Shown piece after piece: positions 1 to 62,556 of a stretch of DNA of 64,000 bases (the first letter of the stretch is position 1; every line of letters starts with the position of its first letter). Origin of the DNA: Candidatus Latescibacterota bacterium (GTDB lineage Bacteria > Latescibacterota > UBA2968); contig OZ242010.1 of assembly GCA_965204745.1 (NCBI GenBank), positions 160,001 through 224,000 of the forward strand, given 5' to 3'. A program made the translations under genes and the position numbers. The notes under the pieces are model-generated. The model was not told the origin of the DNA. It was given only the letters and a program-made list of their open reading frames with translations, and did not search any database.

Positions 1-256
1 TGAGCAACCATTCCACGGGATGGCCCTCTTGCAAGGCCCAAAACGCAATGCCGTAGGCTTTGAGGTGATCGGTTTGCGTCACATCCATCGGGATGAGCAC
101 CTTGCCGACATTGACCTGCCCCCCACCAATCGCCGCCGTGCAAACAGAGGATAGGGTCAAGATGAGGAAGAGGGAAGAGGCAAGAGGTGAGAGGGAAGAG
201 GCAAGAGGTGAGAGGGAAGAGGAGAGACGGGAGAGGGAAGAGGCAAGTTTAGCCAC
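1..256 (-). CDS. 5' part of a secreted protein of the family often labelled 'asparagine synthetase B' in Bacteroidota-like genomes (runs off left edge)
   Basis: Hand translation of minus strand from GTG 256: VAKLASSLSRLSSSLSPLASSLSPLASSLFLILTLSSVCTAAIGGGQVNVGKVLIPMDVTQTDHLKAYGIAFWALQEGHPVEWLL; LIPMD..Q..HLKAYG.A.W....V.WLL is the family motif as I recall it. Start codon uncertain; not in the ORF track. Confidence 0.6.
   Translation of the reverse strand, partial: MAKLASSLSRLSSSLSPLASSLSPLASSLFLILTLSSVCTAAIGGGQVNVGKVLIPMDVTQTDHLKAYGIAFWALQEGHPVEWLL
166..246. repeat. Heptameric tandem repeat (GGAAGAG/GCAAGAG/GTGAGAG variants)
   Basis: Consecutive 7-mers visible directly, with a 21-bp super-period. 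Confidence 0.85.
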
Positions 257-46408: not shown

Positions 46409-47248
46409 ATGCGTGTATATCTCGATCGGTTGCGATATATTCTCGACCACGGCATCAAAAAAAATGATCGCACAGGCGTGGGGACGATCTCGTGTTTTGG
46501 TCTGCAAGCGCGTTACGCGATGGCCGATGGATTTCCGGCCGTGACGACCAAGCGATTGGTTTGGAGATCCCTGCTCTCGGAACTGCTGTGGTTTGTGTCT
46601 GGGTCGGACAACATCCATGATTTGAAAGCCCATTTGAAAAGCAACCGGCTGTGGGATGGCAATTACGCGGACTATTTGAATCGCTTGGGACTGGATGCAA
46701 ACGACGGTGGCATGGGGCGCATTTACGGGGTGCAATGGCGGTGCTGGCAAGGGGCCAATGGCGAGGTGGTGGATCAACTTCAAGAGGCGATAGATTTGAT
46801 TAGACACAATCCCGAGTCCCGGCGCATTCTGGTCAATGCGTGGAATGCGGCTGAAGTAAGTCCGCAAGACGTGGCCCTGCCCCCGTGTCACAACTTGTTT
46901 CAATTTTACGTGGCAGAGGGCAAATTGTCTTTGCAGATGTATCAGCGGTCCTGCGACATGTTTTTGGGCGTGCCCCTCAACATCGCGTCCTATTCCACAT
47001 TGTTGCACATGGTCGCCAAAATCACAGGGCTTGTGCCGCACGAATTTATTCACGTCCTCGGCGACGCCCACATTTACCTCAACCACCTCGACGCGGTCAA
47101 AGCGCAACTGTCTCGCACGCCGTATCCCCTGCCCCAGTTGCAGATTGCAGACCGCGGTCAAACCGAGATCGATGATTTTGTGATGGACGATTTTGAACTG
47201 ATCGATTACCAGCACCATCCGACCATCCGAGCGAAAATGGCGGTGTGA
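46409..47248 (+). CDS. thyA: Thymidylate synthase
   Basis: DRTGVGT, ELLWF, YGVQWR, SRR, ALPPCH, YQRSCD.FLGVP.NIASY, GDAHIY.NH. Confidence 0.97.
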   Translation: MRVYLDRLRYILDHGIKKNDRTGVGTISCFGLQARYAMADGFPAVTTKRLVWRSLLSELLWFVSGSDNIHDLKAHLKSNRLWDGNYADYLNRLGLDANDGGMGRIYGVQWRCWQGANGEVVDQLQEAIDLIRHNPESRRILVNAWNAAEVSPQDVALPPCHNLFQFYVAEGKLSLQMYQRSCDMFLGVPLNIASYSTLLHMVAKITGLVPHEFIHVLGDAHIYLNHLDAVKAQLSRTPYPLPQLQIADRGQTEIDDFVMDDFELIDYQHHPTIRAKMAV

Positions 47249-47288
47249 AGGCGGGGAGAGGGAAGAGGCAAGATACTCTCTTAAAAGG

Positions 47289-48296
47289 TCAAGGGGTTTT
47301 CGGGGTGATTCGATAGAATTTTTCGCCCTCAAAATCTTGGTCATGGCGCAACATGCCCCAGATCGAATGGAGCAACTTTCGCATCACCGCAACGATAGCC
47401 TGCAAAGGTTTCTTGCCGCGGGCGATGAGTTGGTCATAGAAGGCTTTGACATGGCCTTCGTGTCTGATGGCCACCCAGGCAGGCATATAGAGGGCATGGC
47501 GGAGGTACTTATTCCCGGTTTTCGAGATGCGTCTTTGTGGATTGGCGGTTCCGGATTGTTTGGGTTTGGGATCCAGGCCTGCATGTGCGACCCACTGGGG
47601 CGGTTGCATCTCCTCTGGCAAAAGGGTCAACTCGGCCAAGAGCCGCAAGGCACTCGTTTGCGCGATGCCAGGCGTCGAGCAGAGGCGTTGGTAGGCACGC
47701 TTGAGGGGCTCATCGTGCAAAACGAGATCGAGGGCTTGGCTTTCCAAGTATGCAATCCGGCGTTTGAAGTGTCGAATATTCACCTGAATATCGCGTGCGA
47801 TGAGACGTGTGCTGCGGATGTGGTAGCTCTGCGCGTGGTTGCGGCTCTGTTCGCGGATGATCTCCTGCTTGAGTTGGTCAATGCGTCTGGTGAGGGCTTG
47901 CAGTTGAAGCCGTTGCTCGCTCGGCGCTTGCCAAGGCACAAAAGGCATGCGCTCGGCATAGTCGAGGATCAACAACGCATCCTTCGCATCCGTCTTCGCC
48001 CGTTGCATGCAGGCTTGGGCGTACTTGCTCATCGCTTTGGGATTGACGACCATGACCTTTGTGTGGCGATGCCGATGCAAGGCCAAGGCCACCCCCAAAC
48101 TGTAAAGCCCGGTCGCTTCGAGGCACACAGAGACCATGTGCCCGCCCTTCGTGAGCCACTTCAGCAACCGCTTATGCGCTTGGGGATCATTGGCAAAGGT
48201 CGCTTGCATGACAGCTTGTCCGGGTCTGGACAGGGCAACGGACAACGTGCGGGCACTGACATCAATGCCGGCAAAAGCGGGGTGAGATTTCGACAT
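47289..48296 (-). CDS. IS110 DEDD recombinase/transposase
   Basis: GIDVS, LEATG, KTDAKDA, PGI, AGLDP..QSG, SK.GN.YLR.ALY, A.VAVMRKL; AGGAGG RBS before ATG 48296. Confidence 0.95.
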   Translation of the reverse strand: MSKSHPAFAGIDVSARTLSVALSRPGQAVMQATFANDPQAHKRLLKWLTKGGHMVSVCLEATGLYSLGVALALHRHRHTKVMVVNPKAMSKYAQACMQRAKTDAKDALLILDYAERMPFVPWQAPSEQRLQLQALTRRIDQLKQEIIREQSRNHAQSYHIRSTRLIARDIQVNIRHFKRRIAYLESQALDLVLHDEPLKRAYQRLCSTPGIAQTSALRLLAELTLLPEEMQPPQWVAHAGLDPKPKQSGTANPQRRISKTGNKYLRHALYMPAWVAIRHEGHVKAFYDQLIARGKKPLQAIVAVMRKLLHSIWGMLRHDQDFEGEKFYRITPKTP

Positions 48297-48349
48297 GGGG
48301 GCCTCCTGTGATGAGGGGGTTGTAAGGGATCTGGTGCGCGCTCGGGGTC

Positions 48350-48535
48350 GCGTCCCGACCATTGACGCCAAGTCTACCGGTCTTGTATATGCAGCCTCAA
48401 GGGGCTTAGATACTCTTCGGCATAGACCCGGCGGTCGGGGGGCCTATCTTACCTACAAGGTCATCGCCTTCAAGAGGGGCCGGCCTTCCCCGAGCCGGGC
48501 ATCAAGATGGCTTATCTCGATACGAGGGCGCAACT
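48350..48535 (-). ncRNA. Predicted IS110 bridge RNA, copy 1
   Basis: 5' hairpin, then two internal loops: LTG CCCCTCTT (48479-48472), RTG AGGTAAGA (48454-48447), LDG AGAGTATCT (48416-48408), RDG ATACAAGA (48388-48381), matching target and donor junctions. Ends approximate. Confidence 0.85.
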
Positions 48536-48645
48536 CCTAATTAACCCTTACTTCCAAGATACAAGAGGGGAGACGCGAGAGGGGAGAGGGAAGTTTAGTC
48601 ACGAGCGGTACAACTGGCGACAGATTGAAGGAGATGACGAAATGA

Positions 48646-48771
48646 AAAAGAGCGATTTCGAGCAAACCAGCGAACTTCGATCCAAAATTTGACCTCGACA
48701 GCGACGGAGAGGTCGGCTTTTCCGATTTCATCATTTTTGTCGATTCTTTTGGCAAACCCGTCAATGGATAA
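48646..48771 (+). pseudogene. Orphan 3' fragment encoding an EF-hand/dockerin-like C-terminal domain
   Basis: PANFDPKFDLDSDGEVGFSDFIIFVDSFGKPVNG-stop, with in-frame stop at 48643 and no start. Confidence 0.65.
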
Positions 48772-48809
48772 TCCTTTCGCTTTATCGTCATCCCTTTGAG
48801 TGCGAAACC

Positions 48810-49379
48810 GTGGAACGCTTTCTCATTTTGGTCAAACACGCGATGCCTCGCATTGACGAGACGAAATCCGCCGCAGACTGGCACCTGTCTGAGCGCGGCC
48901 GGGCGAGTTGTCTCGATCTCGCCGAGGCGTTGCGTCCCTATAACCCCGACCTTTTTGTCACGAGCGACGAACCCAAAGCGCGAGAAACAGGTCAACGCGC
49001 CGCCGAACACCTTCGGCTTCCCTGTTCACCCGTCCCCAATCTGCATGAACACGACCGCAAAGGCGTTCCCTTTATGCGCCGAGAAATCTGGCATGCCACG
49101 CTAAAAACCTTCTTTGCTCGCCCCGACGACCTGATCTTGGGCAATGAAACGGCAAATCAAGCGCGGCTTCGGTTCAGCCGAGCGGTTGAAGCAGTTGTGA
49201 AAACGCACCCCCACAAAACCATCGCCATCGCCACACACGGCACGGTCATCTCTTTATTCGTCGCGCAAAAAACGCGAACCAATGGCTTCGATCTCTGGCA
49301 ACGCTTGGGCTTGCCCTCGTATGTGGTGCTCGACCTGCCGGACTACAACTTGCACGCCCTTGCAGAACGGATAGGATAA
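48810..49379 (+). CDS. Histidine phosphatase (phosphoglycerate mutase) family protein
   Basis: LILVKHA, LSERG, TS.E.KA.ET, LHE, IATHG. Confidence 0.85.
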   Translation: MERFLILVKHAMPRIDETKSAADWHLSERGRASCLDLAEALRPYNPDLFVTSDEPKARETGQRAAEHLRLPCSPVPNLHEHDRKGVPFMRREIWHATLKTFFARPDDLILGNETANQARLRFSRAVEAVVKTHPHKTIAIATHGTVISLFVAQKTRTNGFDLWQRLGLPSYVVLDLPDYNLHALAERIG

Positions 49380-54748: not shown

Positions 54749-55579
54749 GTGAACACCTTGACCCAACTGATCGCCCGTTGGCGCGTGCAGGCGTATTTGG
54801 ACTTCATGTGGATGACGCGGGATTTTCGGTTCTTTCTGATCAACATCGTCTCGGACATCATTCTCAACCTCGCGGGGGTGATGGCGGTCTTTCTCTTGAC
54901 CGAACGCTTTGAGGGCATCGGCGCGTGGTCGCGCGATCAAATCGTCTTCATGCTCGGGTACGCGGCCTTGGTGCGCGGCCTGCTGGACGTGGGATTCAGC
55001 TACAACGTCCTCCACATCAGCCGCCGCATTGGCCGCGGGCAGATCGACCACCTCCTCGTGCAACCGCAACCCCTGTGGATGGGTCTTCTGACCGAGGGAT
55101 TTATGCCGTTCTCCGGATCGTGGTCTTTGCTCACCGGCATCGGCATTATGGCTTGGGCCATCCACCAACTCGGCATGGCGTCGACCACGTACTGGTTCGC
55201 GTTCGCCTGCAATCTCGCGGCCTCCTGCGCGATAGTGCTCGCATTCTCTTTTGCCTGGGGCAGTTTGGCATTTTGGGCGCCGGTCGCCGCCGAAGAAATC
55301 AGCAGCCGCGCGGTCAATTTTATGTACCAACTCAAATCGTTTCCCCTCGATGGTTTAAGCGCGTTTGTGCTCGCCAACATGCTCGCGGTCTTGCCAGTCG
55401 GGTTTGTCGCGTGGTATCCCTGCCGGCAATTGCTCGGCATCGCCCCGCCGAACCTGTGGCACACCCCGCTCGTCGCCATCGCCTTCTCGCTCATCGCGTG
55501 GGTCGCGTTCAAAAAAGGCATGCAACACTATGAACAAACCGGATCACAACGCTACCTCGGCTGGGGCCATCGCAGTTAA
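54749..55579 (+). CDS. ABC-2 family permease (DUF990)
   Basis: GTG after GGAGG; GAWS, GQIDHLLVQP, FPL, Y..TGS. Confidence 0.85.
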   Translation: MNTLTQLIARWRVQAYLDFMWMTRDFRFFLINIVSDIILNLAGVMAVFLLTERFEGIGAWSRDQIVFMLGYAALVRGLLDVGFSYNVLHISRRIGRGQIDHLLVQPQPLWMGLLTEGFMPFSGSWSLLTGIGIMAWAIHQLGMASTTYWFAFACNLAASCAIVLAFSFAWGSLAFWAPVAAEEISSRAVNFMYQLKSFPLDGLSAFVLANMLAVLPVGFVAWYPCRQLLGIAPPNLWHTPLVAIAFSLIAWVAFKKGMQHYEQTGSQRYLGWGHRS

Positions 55580-56549
55580 ACTCCGCAAGGTCGATAAAAT
55601 TTTCTACCAACGCCAGCGGTCCGAAAAAATCCAAGACGTGTTCAAAAACCTGTTTCGCCCGAACATCCGGAAAATTCGCGCCTTGCAACAGGTCGATCTC
55701 AGCATTCGCCGAGGCGAAATCGTGGCGTATGCCGGCCCCAATGGCGCGGGCAAATCCACCACTGTCAAGTTGCTCTCCAGCGTTTTGGCCCCCACAGCCG
55801 GCAGCGTGGAATGCTTGGGCATGGATCCCATGAAAGACCGCGTGCAGTACGTCAAGCGCATCGGCGTGGTGTTTGGGCAGCGCACTGAATTGTGGTGGGA
55901 CCAACCCGTGGTCGCCAGCTTTGAGTGGAAGCGCGTGGTGTGGGAGATTCCCCGCAACCGGTATGACGCCATGCTCGGCTTTGTCAAAGACCTGCTCGGC
56001 ATCGACGAATTTTTCAACGCCCTGGCGCGGCAACTCAGCCTGGGACAAAAAATGCGCGCAGACCTCGCCCTGATGCTCATGCACGAACCGGAAATCCTCT
56101 TTTTGGACGAACCCACCATCGGCGTTGACGTGCTCGCCAAACGCAACATCCTCAACTTCATCAAAAACCTCAACCGGGAAAAAGGCGTCACAGTCCTGCT
56201 CACCAGCCACGACATGGACGAACTCGAGCAACTCGCCGGGCGCATCGTCATGATCGACAAGGGCCGCATCGCGTATGACGGGGATTTTCGACACCTGCGC
56301 CGGCAATTTGGCGACCACCGCCACCTCACCATTGAAACCGCGAGCGCGGACCCGCCAAAACTATCGGGCGTTCGATTCATCCGCAGCGAAGGCAACCGCC
56401 ACCACTTCACGTTCGACGCCGCGCAAACGCCCATTCCCACCCTGCTCGACCAAGTGCAAACTCCGATCCGAGATATCGAAACCCACCGCGCACCCATTGA
56501 CGACGTGATCGCAGATATGTACGAACACTGGGATGCAAGGGATCAGTAG
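55530..56549 (+). CDS. ABC transporter ATP-binding protein
   Basis: GPNGAGKSTT, VFGQRTELWWD, LSLGQK, LFLDEPTIG, LTSHDM. Confidence 0.93.
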   Translation: MNKPDHNATSAGAIAVKLRKVDKIFYQRQRSEKIQDVFKNLFRPNIRKIRALQQVDLSIRRGEIVAYAGPNGAGKSTTVKLLSSVLAPTAGSVECLGMDPMKDRVQYVKRIGVVFGQRTELWWDQPVVASFEWKRVVWEIPRNRYDAMLGFVKDLLGIDEFFNALARQLSLGQKMRADLALMLMHEPEILFLDEPTIGVDVLAKRNILNFIKNLNREKGVTVLLTSHDMDELEQLAGRIVMIDKGRIAYDGDFRHLRRQFGDHRHLTIETASADPPKLSGVRFIRSEGNRHHFTFDAAQTPIPTLLDQVQTPIRDIETHRAPIDDVIADMYEHWDARDQ

Positions 56550-56692
56550 TCAGTCCATTGTCTGAATCGCGGATTAAACGGATTGCGCGGATTGCACGGA
56601 TTACCGCGCCGCCGCCCGTGCGTGCCCATCCCGTCCTACCGCAAGCCCTATCCCCAAGTAAGAGGCAAGAAGTAAGATACTCTCTTAAAAGG

Positions 56693-57700
56693 TCAAGGGG
56701 TTTTCGGGGTGATTCGATAGAATTTCTCGCCCTCAAAATCTTGGTCATGCCGCAACATGCCCCAGATCGCATGGAGCAATTTTCGCATCACCGCAACGAT
56801 AGCCTGCAAAGGTTTCTTGCCCCTGGCGATGAGTTTGTCATAAAAGGCTTTGACATGGACTTCGTGCCTGCAGGCCACCCAAGCAGGCATGTAGAGGGCA
56901 TGGCGGAGATATTTATTTCCGGTTTTCGAGATGCGTCTTTGTGGATTGGCAGTCCCGGATTGTTTGGGTTTGGGATCCAGGCCTGCATGAGCGACCCATT
57001 GGGGCGGTTCCATCCCGTCTGGCAAGGAGGCCAGCTCGGCCAAGAGCCGCAAGGCACTCGTTTGGGCGATACCGGGCACCGAGCAGAGGTGCTGGTAGGC
57101 ACGCTTTTGGGGCTCGTCCTGCAAAACGAGTTTGAGGGCTTGGTCTTCCAAGTAGGCAATGCGGCGTTTGAGGTGTCGAATATTCACCTGAATATCGCGT
57201 GTGATGAGGCGGGCACGCTTGACGGGGTAGTCCTGCGCGTGGTGCCGGTTCTGTTCGCGGCTGACCTCCTGTTTGAGTTGGTCAATGCGTCTGGTCAGCG
57301 TTTGCAGTTGCAGGACGTGCTCGCTCGGCACTTGCCAAGGCACAAAGGGCATGCGCTCGGCATCATCGAGGATCAACAACGCATCCTTCGCATCTGTCTT
57401 TGCCCGTTGCATGCAGGCTTGAGCGTACTTGCTCATCGCTTTGGGATTGACGACCATGACCTGCGTGCAGCGATGCTGATGCAAGGCCAAGGCCACCCCC
57501 AAGCTATAACGCCCGGTCGCTTCGAGACAGACCGAGACCATGCGCCCGCCCTTGGTGAGCCACTTCAACAGGTGCTTGTGCGCCCGAGGCGCGTTGTCAA
57601 AGGTGGCTTGCATGACCCCTTGTCCGGGTCTGGACAGGGCAACGGACAACGTGTGGGCACTGACATCAATGCCGGCAAAAGCGGGTTGAGTGTTCGACAT
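56693..57700 (-). CDS. IS110 DEDD recombinase/transposase
   Basis: Same motifs and length (335 aa) as copy 1, with many substitutions. Confidence 0.95.
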   Translation of the reverse strand: MSNTQPAFAGIDVSAHTLSVALSRPGQGVMQATFDNAPRAHKHLLKWLTKGGRMVSVCLEATGRYSLGVALALHQHRCTQVMVVNPKAMSKYAQACMQRAKTDAKDALLILDDAERMPFVPWQVPSEHVLQLQTLTRRIDQLKQEVSREQNRHHAQDYPVKRARLITRDIQVNIRHLKRRIAYLEDQALKLVLQDEPQKRAYQHLCSVPGIAQTSALRLLAELASLPDGMEPPQWVAHAGLDPKPKQSGTANPQRRISKTGNKYLRHALYMPAWVACRHEVHVKAFYDKLIARGKKPLQAIVAVMRKLLHAIWGMLRHDQDFEGEKFYRITPKTP

Positions 57701-57754
57701 CGGGGCCTCCTGTGATGAGGGGTTTGTAAGGGATCTGGTGTGCGCTCGGGTTCG

Positions 57755-57937
57755 CGTCCCGACTGTTTGCCCAGTCTACCGGTCTTGTATATGCAGCCTC
57801 GATGGACTTAGATACTCTTCGGTATCAACTCGGCGGTCGGGGGGCCTATCTTACTTACAAGGTCATAGCCTTCAAGAGGCACCGGCCTTCCCCGAGCAGG
57901 GCATCAAGATGGCGTGTCTCGATGCGAGGGCGCAACA
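57755..57937 (-). ncRNA. Predicted IS110 bridge RNA, copy 2
   Basis: LTG TGCCTCTT (57881-57874), RTG AAGTAAGA (57856-57849), LDG AGAGTATCT (57818-57810), RDG ATACAAGA (57790-57783). Ends approximate. Confidence 0.85.
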
Positions 57938-58133
57938 CCTAAATTAACCCTTTCTGACAACATACAAGAGGTAAGATCCACCCACCGCCCCGCCGTGTCT
58001 GAATCGCGGATTTGCGCGGATTAGGAGATTGCGCGGATTACCCCTCTCCGCCCGTGCGTGCCCGTCCGCACTACCTCTCCACCCGTGCGTGCCCAGCCCA
58101 TCTCCGCCCTGCCATGTGCGTTAGCCCCATCTT

Positions 58134-62419: not shown

Positions 62420-62520
62420 ATGCGAAGGACATAGCGGATGAGAACGATGAAGCGGTGGTGGGGATGTGGGGGGTAATCCGCGCAATCCCCTAATCCGTTT
62501 AATCCGCGATTCAGACACGG
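62420..62520 (+). repeat. Dispersed element family B
   Basis: Matches 23824-23926; again follows a family A copy. Confidence 0.8.
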
Positions 62521-62556
62521 GCGGTTGGGTGGCTCTCGCCTCTTACTTCTCCTCTC

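Follow-up and report, generated by a model that had tools for sequence, protein, structure and literature searches.

How does an insertion sequence (IS) come to lie, copy after copy, within one kind of short tandem repeat? The question is raised by a stretch of 64,000 nucleotides from an uncultured, sponge-associated Candidatus Latescibacterota bacterium (positions 160,001 to 224,000 of contig OZ242010.1; here the window, with coordinates counted from its first letter), which holds two copies of an IS110-family element, each set into an array of 7-base repeats. The first-pass annotation, made from the letters alone, proposed that the element is guided to these heptamer arrays, that they serve it as a safe harbour, and that its guides drift along with the heptamer variants. 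We analysed the genome that holds the window (G000, a single 5.48-Mb contig) together with its relatives. It is very probable that an IS621-like, RNA-guided element targets the junction between units of a host repeat, CCTCTNN, by means of its guides, and that subfamilies of the element have been re-aimed by mutation of those guides.

Copy 1 and the repeat on either side of it are arranged as follows.

47273-48563, minus strand: IS110-family element, copy 1, 1291 bp; it opens with TGTATCTTGG at 48563 (left end) and closes with ...AAGAGAGTAT at 47273 (right end).
47289-48296, minus strand: recombinase gene of copy 1, 335 amino acids plus stop.
48297-48563, minus strand: non-coding left end, 267 nt between the left end and the start codon, which would encode the bridge RNA.
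48564-48595, minus strand: heptamer-array segment on the left-end side, the left target, ending ...GCGTCTCCCCT-CT.
47252-47272, minus strand: heptamer-array segment on the right-end side, the right target, CT-TGCCTCTTCCCTCTCCCC.

The recombinase of copy 1 contains PF01548 (E 1.2e-24) and PF02371 (E 4.8e-20), and both domains exceed the Pfam cut-offs in the recombinases of both window copies. Its sequence matches in the PDB include ISCro4 (9t56, E 7.6e-40) and IS621 (8wt6, E 5.8e-36). The stretches GIDVS, LEAT, KTDA.DA and SK.G are kept in the alignment to ISCro4; the catalytic residues of IS621 are D11, E60, D102, D105 and S241, according to the accessible part of PMC11208158. Both ends of copy 1 were read and carry no terminal inverted repeats. 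A CT dinucleotide (AG on the plus strand) stands at each junction of both window copies, in copy 1 at 47271-47272 on the right and at 48564-48565 on the left, where four strict heptamer units occupy 48562-48589. The sequence of copy 1 places it among the IS621-like elements of the IS110 family, and it shows all the family features that can be tested in silico. All 57 PF01548 matches in G000 are members of this one element family.

The left end carries four stretches that would form the two loops of a bridge RNA.

48471-48479, minus strand: putative target-binding loop, 5' side, CCCCTCTTG; the left guide CCCCT-CT followed by TG.
48446-48456, minus strand: putative target-binding loop, 3' side, GTAGGTAAGAT; its reverse complement contains the right guide CT-TACCT.
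48408-48418, minus strand: putative donor-binding loop, 5' side, GAAGAGTATCT; a match to AGAGTAT-CT, the right end and core.
48380-48391, minus strand: putative donor-binding loop, 3' side, CATATACAAGAC; in reverse complement it includes CT-TGTAT, the core plus left end.

In IS621 the left guide pairs with the bottom strand at the left target and the right guide with the top strand at the right target, the core lies within both guides, and the donor loop obeys the same rules (PMC11208160, in its accessible part). Read in this way, 40 of the 45 copies with the left guide CCCCT-CT have those same seven bases immediately to the left of the element. The flanks of copy 1 itself (...CGCGTCTCCCCT-CT / CT-TGCCTCTTCCC) fit perfectly in the left half and with one G:U wobble in the right. 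In the donor loop, the reverse complement of ATATACAAG matches CT-TGTAT. The AT (AU in RNA) that trails the right guide occupies the position of the IS621 handshake guide as the available part of PMC11208158 describes it, and could pair with the AT preceding the donor core. A consensus fold of eight sequences, the 267-base left end of copy 1 and seven relatives, has two stem-loops with 60 pairs, five of them with compensatory changes, and sequence variation across the eight left ends is concentrated in the columns of the guide-bearing loops. The guide stretches were taken as internal loops on the IS621 pattern; the folding program paired some of them among themselves.

Insertion would then proceed much as in IS621. 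A DEDD/serine recombinase would act with a bridge RNA transcribed from the non-coding left end, its donor loop (left donor guide GAAGAGTATCT, right donor guide ...ATACAAG) matching the element's own ends around the CT core. To the left of the core, the bottom strand would be bound by the left guide, CCCCT-CT; to its right, the right guide, AGGUAAG, would pair with the top strand, CT-TACCT. The predicted 12-base target is the junction of a 'CC' unit with a 'TA/TG' unit in the host's (CCTCTNN)n arrays, and as this 12-mer occurs almost nowhere else in G000, the element would land in arrays, in one orientation and in phase. It would insert at a CT present once in the empty site. Guide mutations would have produced subfamilies using the junctions CGCCT-CT-TACTT, that of copy 2, and TCCCT-CT-CACCT. 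Transposition by way of a circle is what the family leads us to expect. Placed in such a circle, the right end carries TTGACC 17 bases before the GTATCT of the left end (read by eye), and GTATCT would act as a -10 element. Among the contigs of the four sequencing runs considered below, none was found that connects the right end with the left, and contigs cannot show the absence of such a junction.

Full-length copies number 52 in G000; identity to copy 1 is 100% for 31 of them (itself and 30 others), 99% for 6, 96.1% for 8, 95% for 2 and 88-89% for 5. There are about 25 partial matches as well. All 52 are flanked by pyrimidine heptamers CCTCTNN and have CT at both junctions, the flanks being generally of the CCCCT-CT / CT-TRCCT type. 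We reconstructed the empty sites in silico by removing each copy with one CT. Self-identity at lag 7 was at least 0.5 at 48 of the 52 reconstructed sites, 0.5 being the 99th percentile of a background of 20,000 random 35-mers. Strict arrays, defined as at least three heptamer units on the same strand, number 647 and amount to 27.1 kb, or 0.50% of G000; they contain 48 of the 52 sites, and arrays of at least two units contain 51. The enrichment of flanks in 7-base repeats, by which the first-pass annotation proposed to judge its idea, is thus borne out across the genome.

The arrays are not used evenly. Base composition predicts 1.7 occurrences of the 12-mer CCCCTCTTRCCT in the IS-free genome, and there are 106, of which 101 are in arrays and 36 are occupied. 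Among the 3872 in-phase unit junctions within arrays, the perfect match to the main guide, CCCCTCTTACCT, is occupied in 19 of 24 cases (79%) and the G:U-wobble junction CCCCTCTTGCCT in 15 of 77 (19%), while the commonest junction, TGCCTCTTGCCT, is occupied in none of 238. Such graded occupancy does not follow from composition or array structure alone; base pairing with the loop can produce it. The target is also of a different class from the repetitive extragenic palindromic (REP) sequences: the flanks are in-phase CCTCTNN arrays, and the 12-mer, all pyrimidine save one purine, cannot pair with itself. The recombinase might still recognise the shape or a non-B structure of the polypyrimidine array, the similarity of loop and flank being incidental, and there is a precedent of sorts in ISPpu10, reported in the accessible part of 10.64898/2026.03.19.712850 to have a target stem-loop as a second layer of specificity. 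Against it, occupancy tracks the 12-mer among arrays of the same composition (19/24 and 15/77 against 0/238), loop and flank change together across five or six independent guide states, and the same family inserts outside arrays in a related genome, G016. We consider recognition by shape very improbable.

The same figures bear on the idea of a safe harbour. Both window copies lie just 3' of a gene and are convergent with it, as first described.

46409-47248, plus strand: thymidylate synthase gene (thyA), convergent with copy 1; the array segment on the right-end side of copy 1 starts 4 bases past its stop codon.
55365-56549, plus strand: ABC ATPase gene, convergent with copy 2.

No protein can be read through a 7-base period without frameshifts, which makes the arrays non-coding and means that insertions there spare genes; similar gene-sparing logic is generally given for the REP-targeting relatives in the part of PMC11208160 available. 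Safe harbour is therefore a reasonable reading of the sequence. The element may instead be RNA-guided as described without the harbour having been selected: a guide that chances to match any high-copy sequence would let the element multiply, the arrays would simply be the only place where matches to the guide are abundant, and insertions might be harmless or not. With 101 of 106 12-mer matches in arrays, no further preference is needed to give the pattern, and the perfect target is near saturation (19/24), as expected when the supply of targets limits copy number. A crude and unreliable survey of neighbouring genes by longest open reading frame (ORF) gave four gene arrangements at 16, 15, 12 and 9 of the 52 sites. 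We would give the absence of selection a little less than an even chance. A rule of gene arrangement was sought with the same proxy and abandoned: no arrangement was preferred and 12 of 52 sites fell 'inside' an ORF, figures that are not to be trusted, as the proxy mis-called thyA through a shadow ORF.

In 42 of the 52 copies, both halves of the site pair with the copy's own guides, counting Watson-Crick and G:U pairs alike. The main guide is carried by 45. The other guide states include that of copy 2.

56677-57966, minus strand: IS110-family element, copy 2, 1290 bp, about 89% identical to copy 1 and a member of the 89%-identity subfamily.

The left guide of copy 2 is TGCCT-CT (57873-57881) and the reverse complement of its right guide is CT-TACTT (57848-57858); its flanks are TACCT-CT on the left and CT-TACTT on the right. 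Across the five copies of this subfamily the guides are CGCCT-CT (TGCCT-CT in copy 2) and CT-TACTT, and the flanks are CGCCT-CT, CACCT-CT or TACCT-CT on the left and CT-TACTT on the right, with CT-TACCT in one copy. The copy at 1297043 has guides TCCCTCTCG (TCCCT-CT(CG)) and GGTGAG (CT-CACCT), an exact fit to its flanks TCCCT-CT / CT-CACCT. Some partial, decayed copies of 88-90% identity (G000:C1:921772, 1263487, 1433018 and 2089466) have the guide TTCCCC-CT and flanks ATTCCCC-CT within a repeat of 12-base period, with no heptamer array; to judge from the sequence, this looks like an older target of the family.

The pattern extends to other species. The closest public relatives of the recombinase are in two complete metagenome-assembled genomes of Latescibacteria/Latescibacterota, G016 and G018, from the same genus. 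G018 is the nearest genome to G000 by thyA (92%), and its recombinase protein is 77% identical. It has guides TCGCCT-CT / CT-CCC and flanks YRCCT-CT / CT-CCCGT, and 16 of its 18 loci are in arrays. G016 (80-84% identity) has 9 matches to the recombinase. Its guides are TCCTC-CT or TCCCC-CT, and CT-TTTCT, and its flanks match these guides; none of the five loci with determinable boundaries is in an array, and no boundary was found for two more. Arrays themselves are distributed accordingly: across 41 related genomes, (CCTCTNN)x4 gives 528 matches for G000 and 219 for G018, and no more than one for any of the 39 others, G016 included. By sequence, the family appears to be aimed at heptamer arrays only where arrays exist, which fits re-aiming of the guides. 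The drift of guides along heptamer variants suggested by the first-pass annotation can thus be followed through three guide states in G000 and one each in G018 and G016, each matching its own flanks.

Two more observations concern these relatives. The G016 guides TCCTC-CT / CT-TTTCT match a site inside a dispersed repeat, GGAGATGTTCTGCCCC-CT-TTTCTCGTAGGGAGG... (L001-L006, L025, L033), of which L033 is an empty copy, and the other strand of this target resembles a ribosome-binding site. A thymidylate synthase match at G016:C1:2606514-2607560 is split: residues 108-279 and residues 1-123 match separately, with about 160 bases between them, and the gene may be interrupted there. Further away, in another family of the same order, G036 has a relative of 54% identity (L027-L029) with the left-end start TGTATCTTG and the same right end, AAGAGAGTAT; its flanks are ...GCGCAT / CT-AACGTTC beside GC-rich palindromes, and the left-side CT is missing in two of three copies. 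These relatives, whose core may be CT or AT, were excluded from the argument on covariation.

Did the arrays precede the element? The window itself holds three loci that bear on this.

56656-56667, minus strand: unoccupied perfect match to the guides of copy 2, TGCCTCTTACTT, two heptamers away from the insertion.
62537-62548, plus strand: empty site CGCCTCTTACTT, within a paralogue of the dispersed repeat that hosts copy 2.
167-243, minus strand: unoccupied heptamer array of 11 strict units, beside a GTTTAGCCACGAGCGG module that is also found after copy 1.

The first-pass annotation had picked out all three: the first as a perfect target for copy 2, the second as an empty site matching in 11 of 12 positions, and the third, at about 222-275, as a likeness of the copy 1 locus before insertion. 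They read as it described, the third locus, at about 167-275, being an unoccupied array followed by the GTTTAGCCACGAGCGG module. The remaining four members of the 89% subfamily have a CGCCT-CT guide, which the site at 62537-62548 fits in 12 of 12 positions.

For copy 1 there are empty alleles. Contigs of four public runs from four studies were compared over 46700-49200; the stretch occurs in runs described as sponge or marine metagenomes. In run X1 a 908-base contig spans 46700-47268 and then 48562-48787, skipping 1293 bases, which is the 1291 of the element plus one CT. Run X12 has the same joint at a depth of 108.6, with flanks at 107-111, and run X14 has a joint with 11 extra letters, an array-length variant. 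Run X17 gave no joint across copy 1. The joined array in X1 and X12 reads GGGAGAG GGAAGAG GCAAGAG GGGAGAC GCGAGAG GGGAGAG GGAA followed by GTTTAGTCACGAGCGG, exactly the continuous array that removing copy 1 on paper had been said to restore. Removing copy 2 likewise gives GTAAGAG GCAAGAA GTAAGAG GTAAGAT, as proposed. The flanks of copy 2's subfamily are a dispersed repeat (...GGTGGGTGG-TCTCGCCT-CT-TACTTCTTGCCTCTTACTTG-GGGATAGGGCTTGCGGT) whose full three-unit segment is empty in 18 cases and filled in 5 among the matches listed, and 62537-62548 is a further, more diverged empty copy. The comparison of empty with filled sites that the first-pass annotation called for therefore favours it: empty alleles from three studies, together with empty paralogues, indicate that the repeats pre-exist and do not travel with the element.

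These sites also bear on whether segmental duplication or homologous recombination, rather than site-specific insertion, multiplied the copies together with their flanks. The five copies of the 89% subfamily do have long flanks in common on both sides. Those flanks are, however, the dispersed repeat just described, with its 18 empty copies among the matches listed; the 45 copies with the main guide share no related sequence beyond the array; and copy 1 has an empty allele. We regard spread by duplication as hardly credible.

Several results weigh against guided insertion as we have set it out. Ten of the 52 copies do not fully match their own guides. Four have the left flank TACCT-CT, with two mismatches, and a perfect right half; two have the right flank CT-CCCGT, with three mismatches, and a perfect left half; two have a single distal mismatch. 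The mismatch of the copy at 5198951 is an artefact of register, caused by a 1-base insertion in its left end. The copy at 602789 (L032, G000:C1:602782-604072) has guides TGCCT-CT / CT-TACTT and flanks TCCCT-CT / CT-CACCT. No bridge-RNA family was found in an Rfam scan of 47200-48650 at E up to 1, which gave only one chance miRNA match, so it is by analogy with IS621 that the RNA is assigned. Of the 17 runs in which the stretch was found, none is recorded as RNA, and expression of the bridge RNA is accordingly an expectation. Finally, CCTCTNN arrays are abundant only in the two genomes whose elements target arrays; independence of arrays and element is therefore shown for single loci and not for the origin of the arrays.

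The flanks of copy 602789 fit the guides of copy 1297043 perfectly, which points to an RNA acting in trans or to replacement of the guide region after insertion. The one-sided matches resemble the 'half-match' insertions reported for IS621 in the accessible part of 10.64898/2026.08.31.748434; later slippage of the array is equally possible.

The arrays might instead be made by the element or carried with it, as footprints, through unequal recombinase-mediated exchange or as moving flanks. In favour of this, (CCTCTNN)x4 is abundant, among the 41 related genomes, only where the element targets it, and sister species have no array downstream of thyA. In G018 (L053) and G001 (L054) the region downstream of thyA has no synteny, no array and different genes; lacking synteny, the comparison says nothing about copy 1, and the absence of arrays there implies that arrays are gained or lost locus by locus. 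Other evidence points away from the element as their maker. Only about 48 of the 647 arrays are occupied, the flanks of different copies diverge past about 14 bases, and the empty alleles of copy 1 retain the whole array. G016 has nine matches to the recombinase and no arrays. By thyA (92%), G000 and G018 are mutual nearest relatives, so shared ancestry explains why arrays and element occur together. Heptamer arrays of another class, ACTGACN, are more numerous and untouched by the element; 16 of the genus's 20 other genomes have them too, in small numbers. An origin of the arrays in the element seems very improbable to us, though at the level of the genus the two may be historically linked. 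The ACTGACN class (AACTGAC, ACCACTG, ACTACTG) has 1023 matches in G000, outnumbering CCTCTNN, with an example at G000:C1:619288-619368; G018 has one match.

A different trace of the element may lie elsewhere in the repeat landscape. The first eight bases of the left end preceded by the core, CT plus TGTATCTT, occur 165 times in IS-free G000 against 5.7 expected; for the right end plus CT the count is 7, with 7.4 expected. Of the 165, 101 run into a 37-base REP-like hairpin, YGGGCGAGCACGGGGGCATCGCCCCTAC, 16 into another dispersed repeat, and 9 are remnants of the element; the window has an example at about 355-400 on the minus strand. Conversely, TGTATCTT (with at most one mismatch) precedes 68 of 101 strictly defined hairpins. 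The fused form is found 149 times in G000, 212 in G016, 61 in G018 and 0-4 times in the other 38 genomes, the three rich genomes being carriers of the element. The sequence to the left of the fused form varies in G016, where 15 of 20 cases have CT before it. A second CT lies within the element's left end (TGTAT-CT), so that the donor junction itself reads as a pair of heptamer-like units, AGTATCT TGTATCT, that keep phase with the array. The fusion may stem from scars of register-shifted excision, non-autonomous elements with a single arm, or co-inheritance. A bounded miniature element proved unconvincing: a GGCTAAA-type end lies within 600 bases in only 23 of 183 cases, and removing the stretch from TGTATCTT to GGCTAAA restored a strict in-phase array in 1 of the 23 and gave a lag-7 identity of at least 0.5 in 9 of the 23. 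That the recombinase shapes the host's repeats besides using them is a speculative and rather unlikely idea. Were it so, the TGTATCTT-hairpins would be passengers with a single donor arm or 7-base scars of excision at the left-end CT (TGTAT-CT), and CCTCTNN arrays and guide subfamilies would diversify together, with saturation of the perfect junction (19/24) favouring guides that open new junctions.

Other features of these repeats stand by themselves. At G000:C1:1121593-1124180 two copies of the element form a direct tandem with 9 bases between them (CT-TACCT-CT), the left target of the second being partly built from the right junction of the first. Tandem repeats of 9 bases lie in the window at 56558-56610, 57990-58040, 62465-62515 and 285-330; genome-wide, the types AATCCGCGN and AAAAGGCAC form 66 and 115 arrays. 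The intergenic clusters are modular, combining 9-base repeats, heptamers, hairpins and a GTTTAGCCACGAGCGGGGTACAACTGG module.

Taken as a whole, the mechanism is an ordinary IS621-like one and the novelty is the class of target, the junction between two unit variants of a simple tandem repeat. This extends the list of IS110 landing sites from palindromic REP sequences to microsatellite-like heptamer arrays. An array offers many targets side by side, and as arrays mutate by slippage, targets of this kind are continually created and destroyed. Bridge-RNA recombinases are under development as programmable tools for genome writing, and little is documented of how natural guides evolve or what limits their spread. 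G000 offers a natural experiment in both, with 52 copies, at least three coexisting guide states that each fit their own junction of one repeat family, graded occupancy, half-fitting copies and a re-aimed family in a sister species. According to the first-pass annotation, IS110 targeting of 7-base simple repeats is not known to have been described. The literature we searched likewise holds no description of IS110 homing to heptamers or simple tandem repeats, though the natural-target tables of PMC11208160 may hold similar cases; where the literature searched joins IS110 with 'tandem repeat', it means tandem copies of cargo and not tandem-repeat targets. It holds nothing on insertion sequences of sponge Latescibacter.

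The closest known system is IS621 of Escherichia coli. The two have the same pair of Pfam domains and homologous recombinases (8wt6, E 5.8e-36), a non-coding left end with what would be target- and donor-binding loops, a CT core in both guides, a left guide in the sense of the left target and a right guide complementary to the right target. One mismatch or wobble is tolerated here, as it is at target position 4 of IS621. They differ in the target: that of IS621 is naturally ATCAGGCCTAC in palindromic REP sequences, and here it is a non-palindromic polypyrimidine heptamer junction. They differ also in that the present element has 52 copies and several guide variants within one genome. ISPpu9 and ISPpu10 of Pseudomonas putida, as far as the accessible accounts describe them, are similar in being multi-copy and confined to repeated intergenic sequence of the host, and differ in using REP-type targets, with a GC-rich stem-loop in the case of ISPpu10, whereas heptamer arrays offer no stem-loop. 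Some members of the superfamily aim at the repeated, non-essential attC; those targets are part of other mobile elements and are not simple tandem repeats. The mycobacterial elements IS900, IS901 and IS902 go into a short consensus rich in pyrimidines that lies close to ribosome-binding sites, in a fixed orientation, and their sites are single and dispersed. Their targets resemble both the CCTCT-type targets here and the CCTCC-CT-TTTCT of G016. For the repeats themselves, the nearest likeness is in Beggiatoaceae, whose intergenic direct repeats of the heptamer TAACTGA (PMC4679880, in its accessible part) resemble the ACTGACN arrays of G000. No homing of insertion sequences to them is reported in that part of the paper, and the unit targeted here is instead CCTCTNN.

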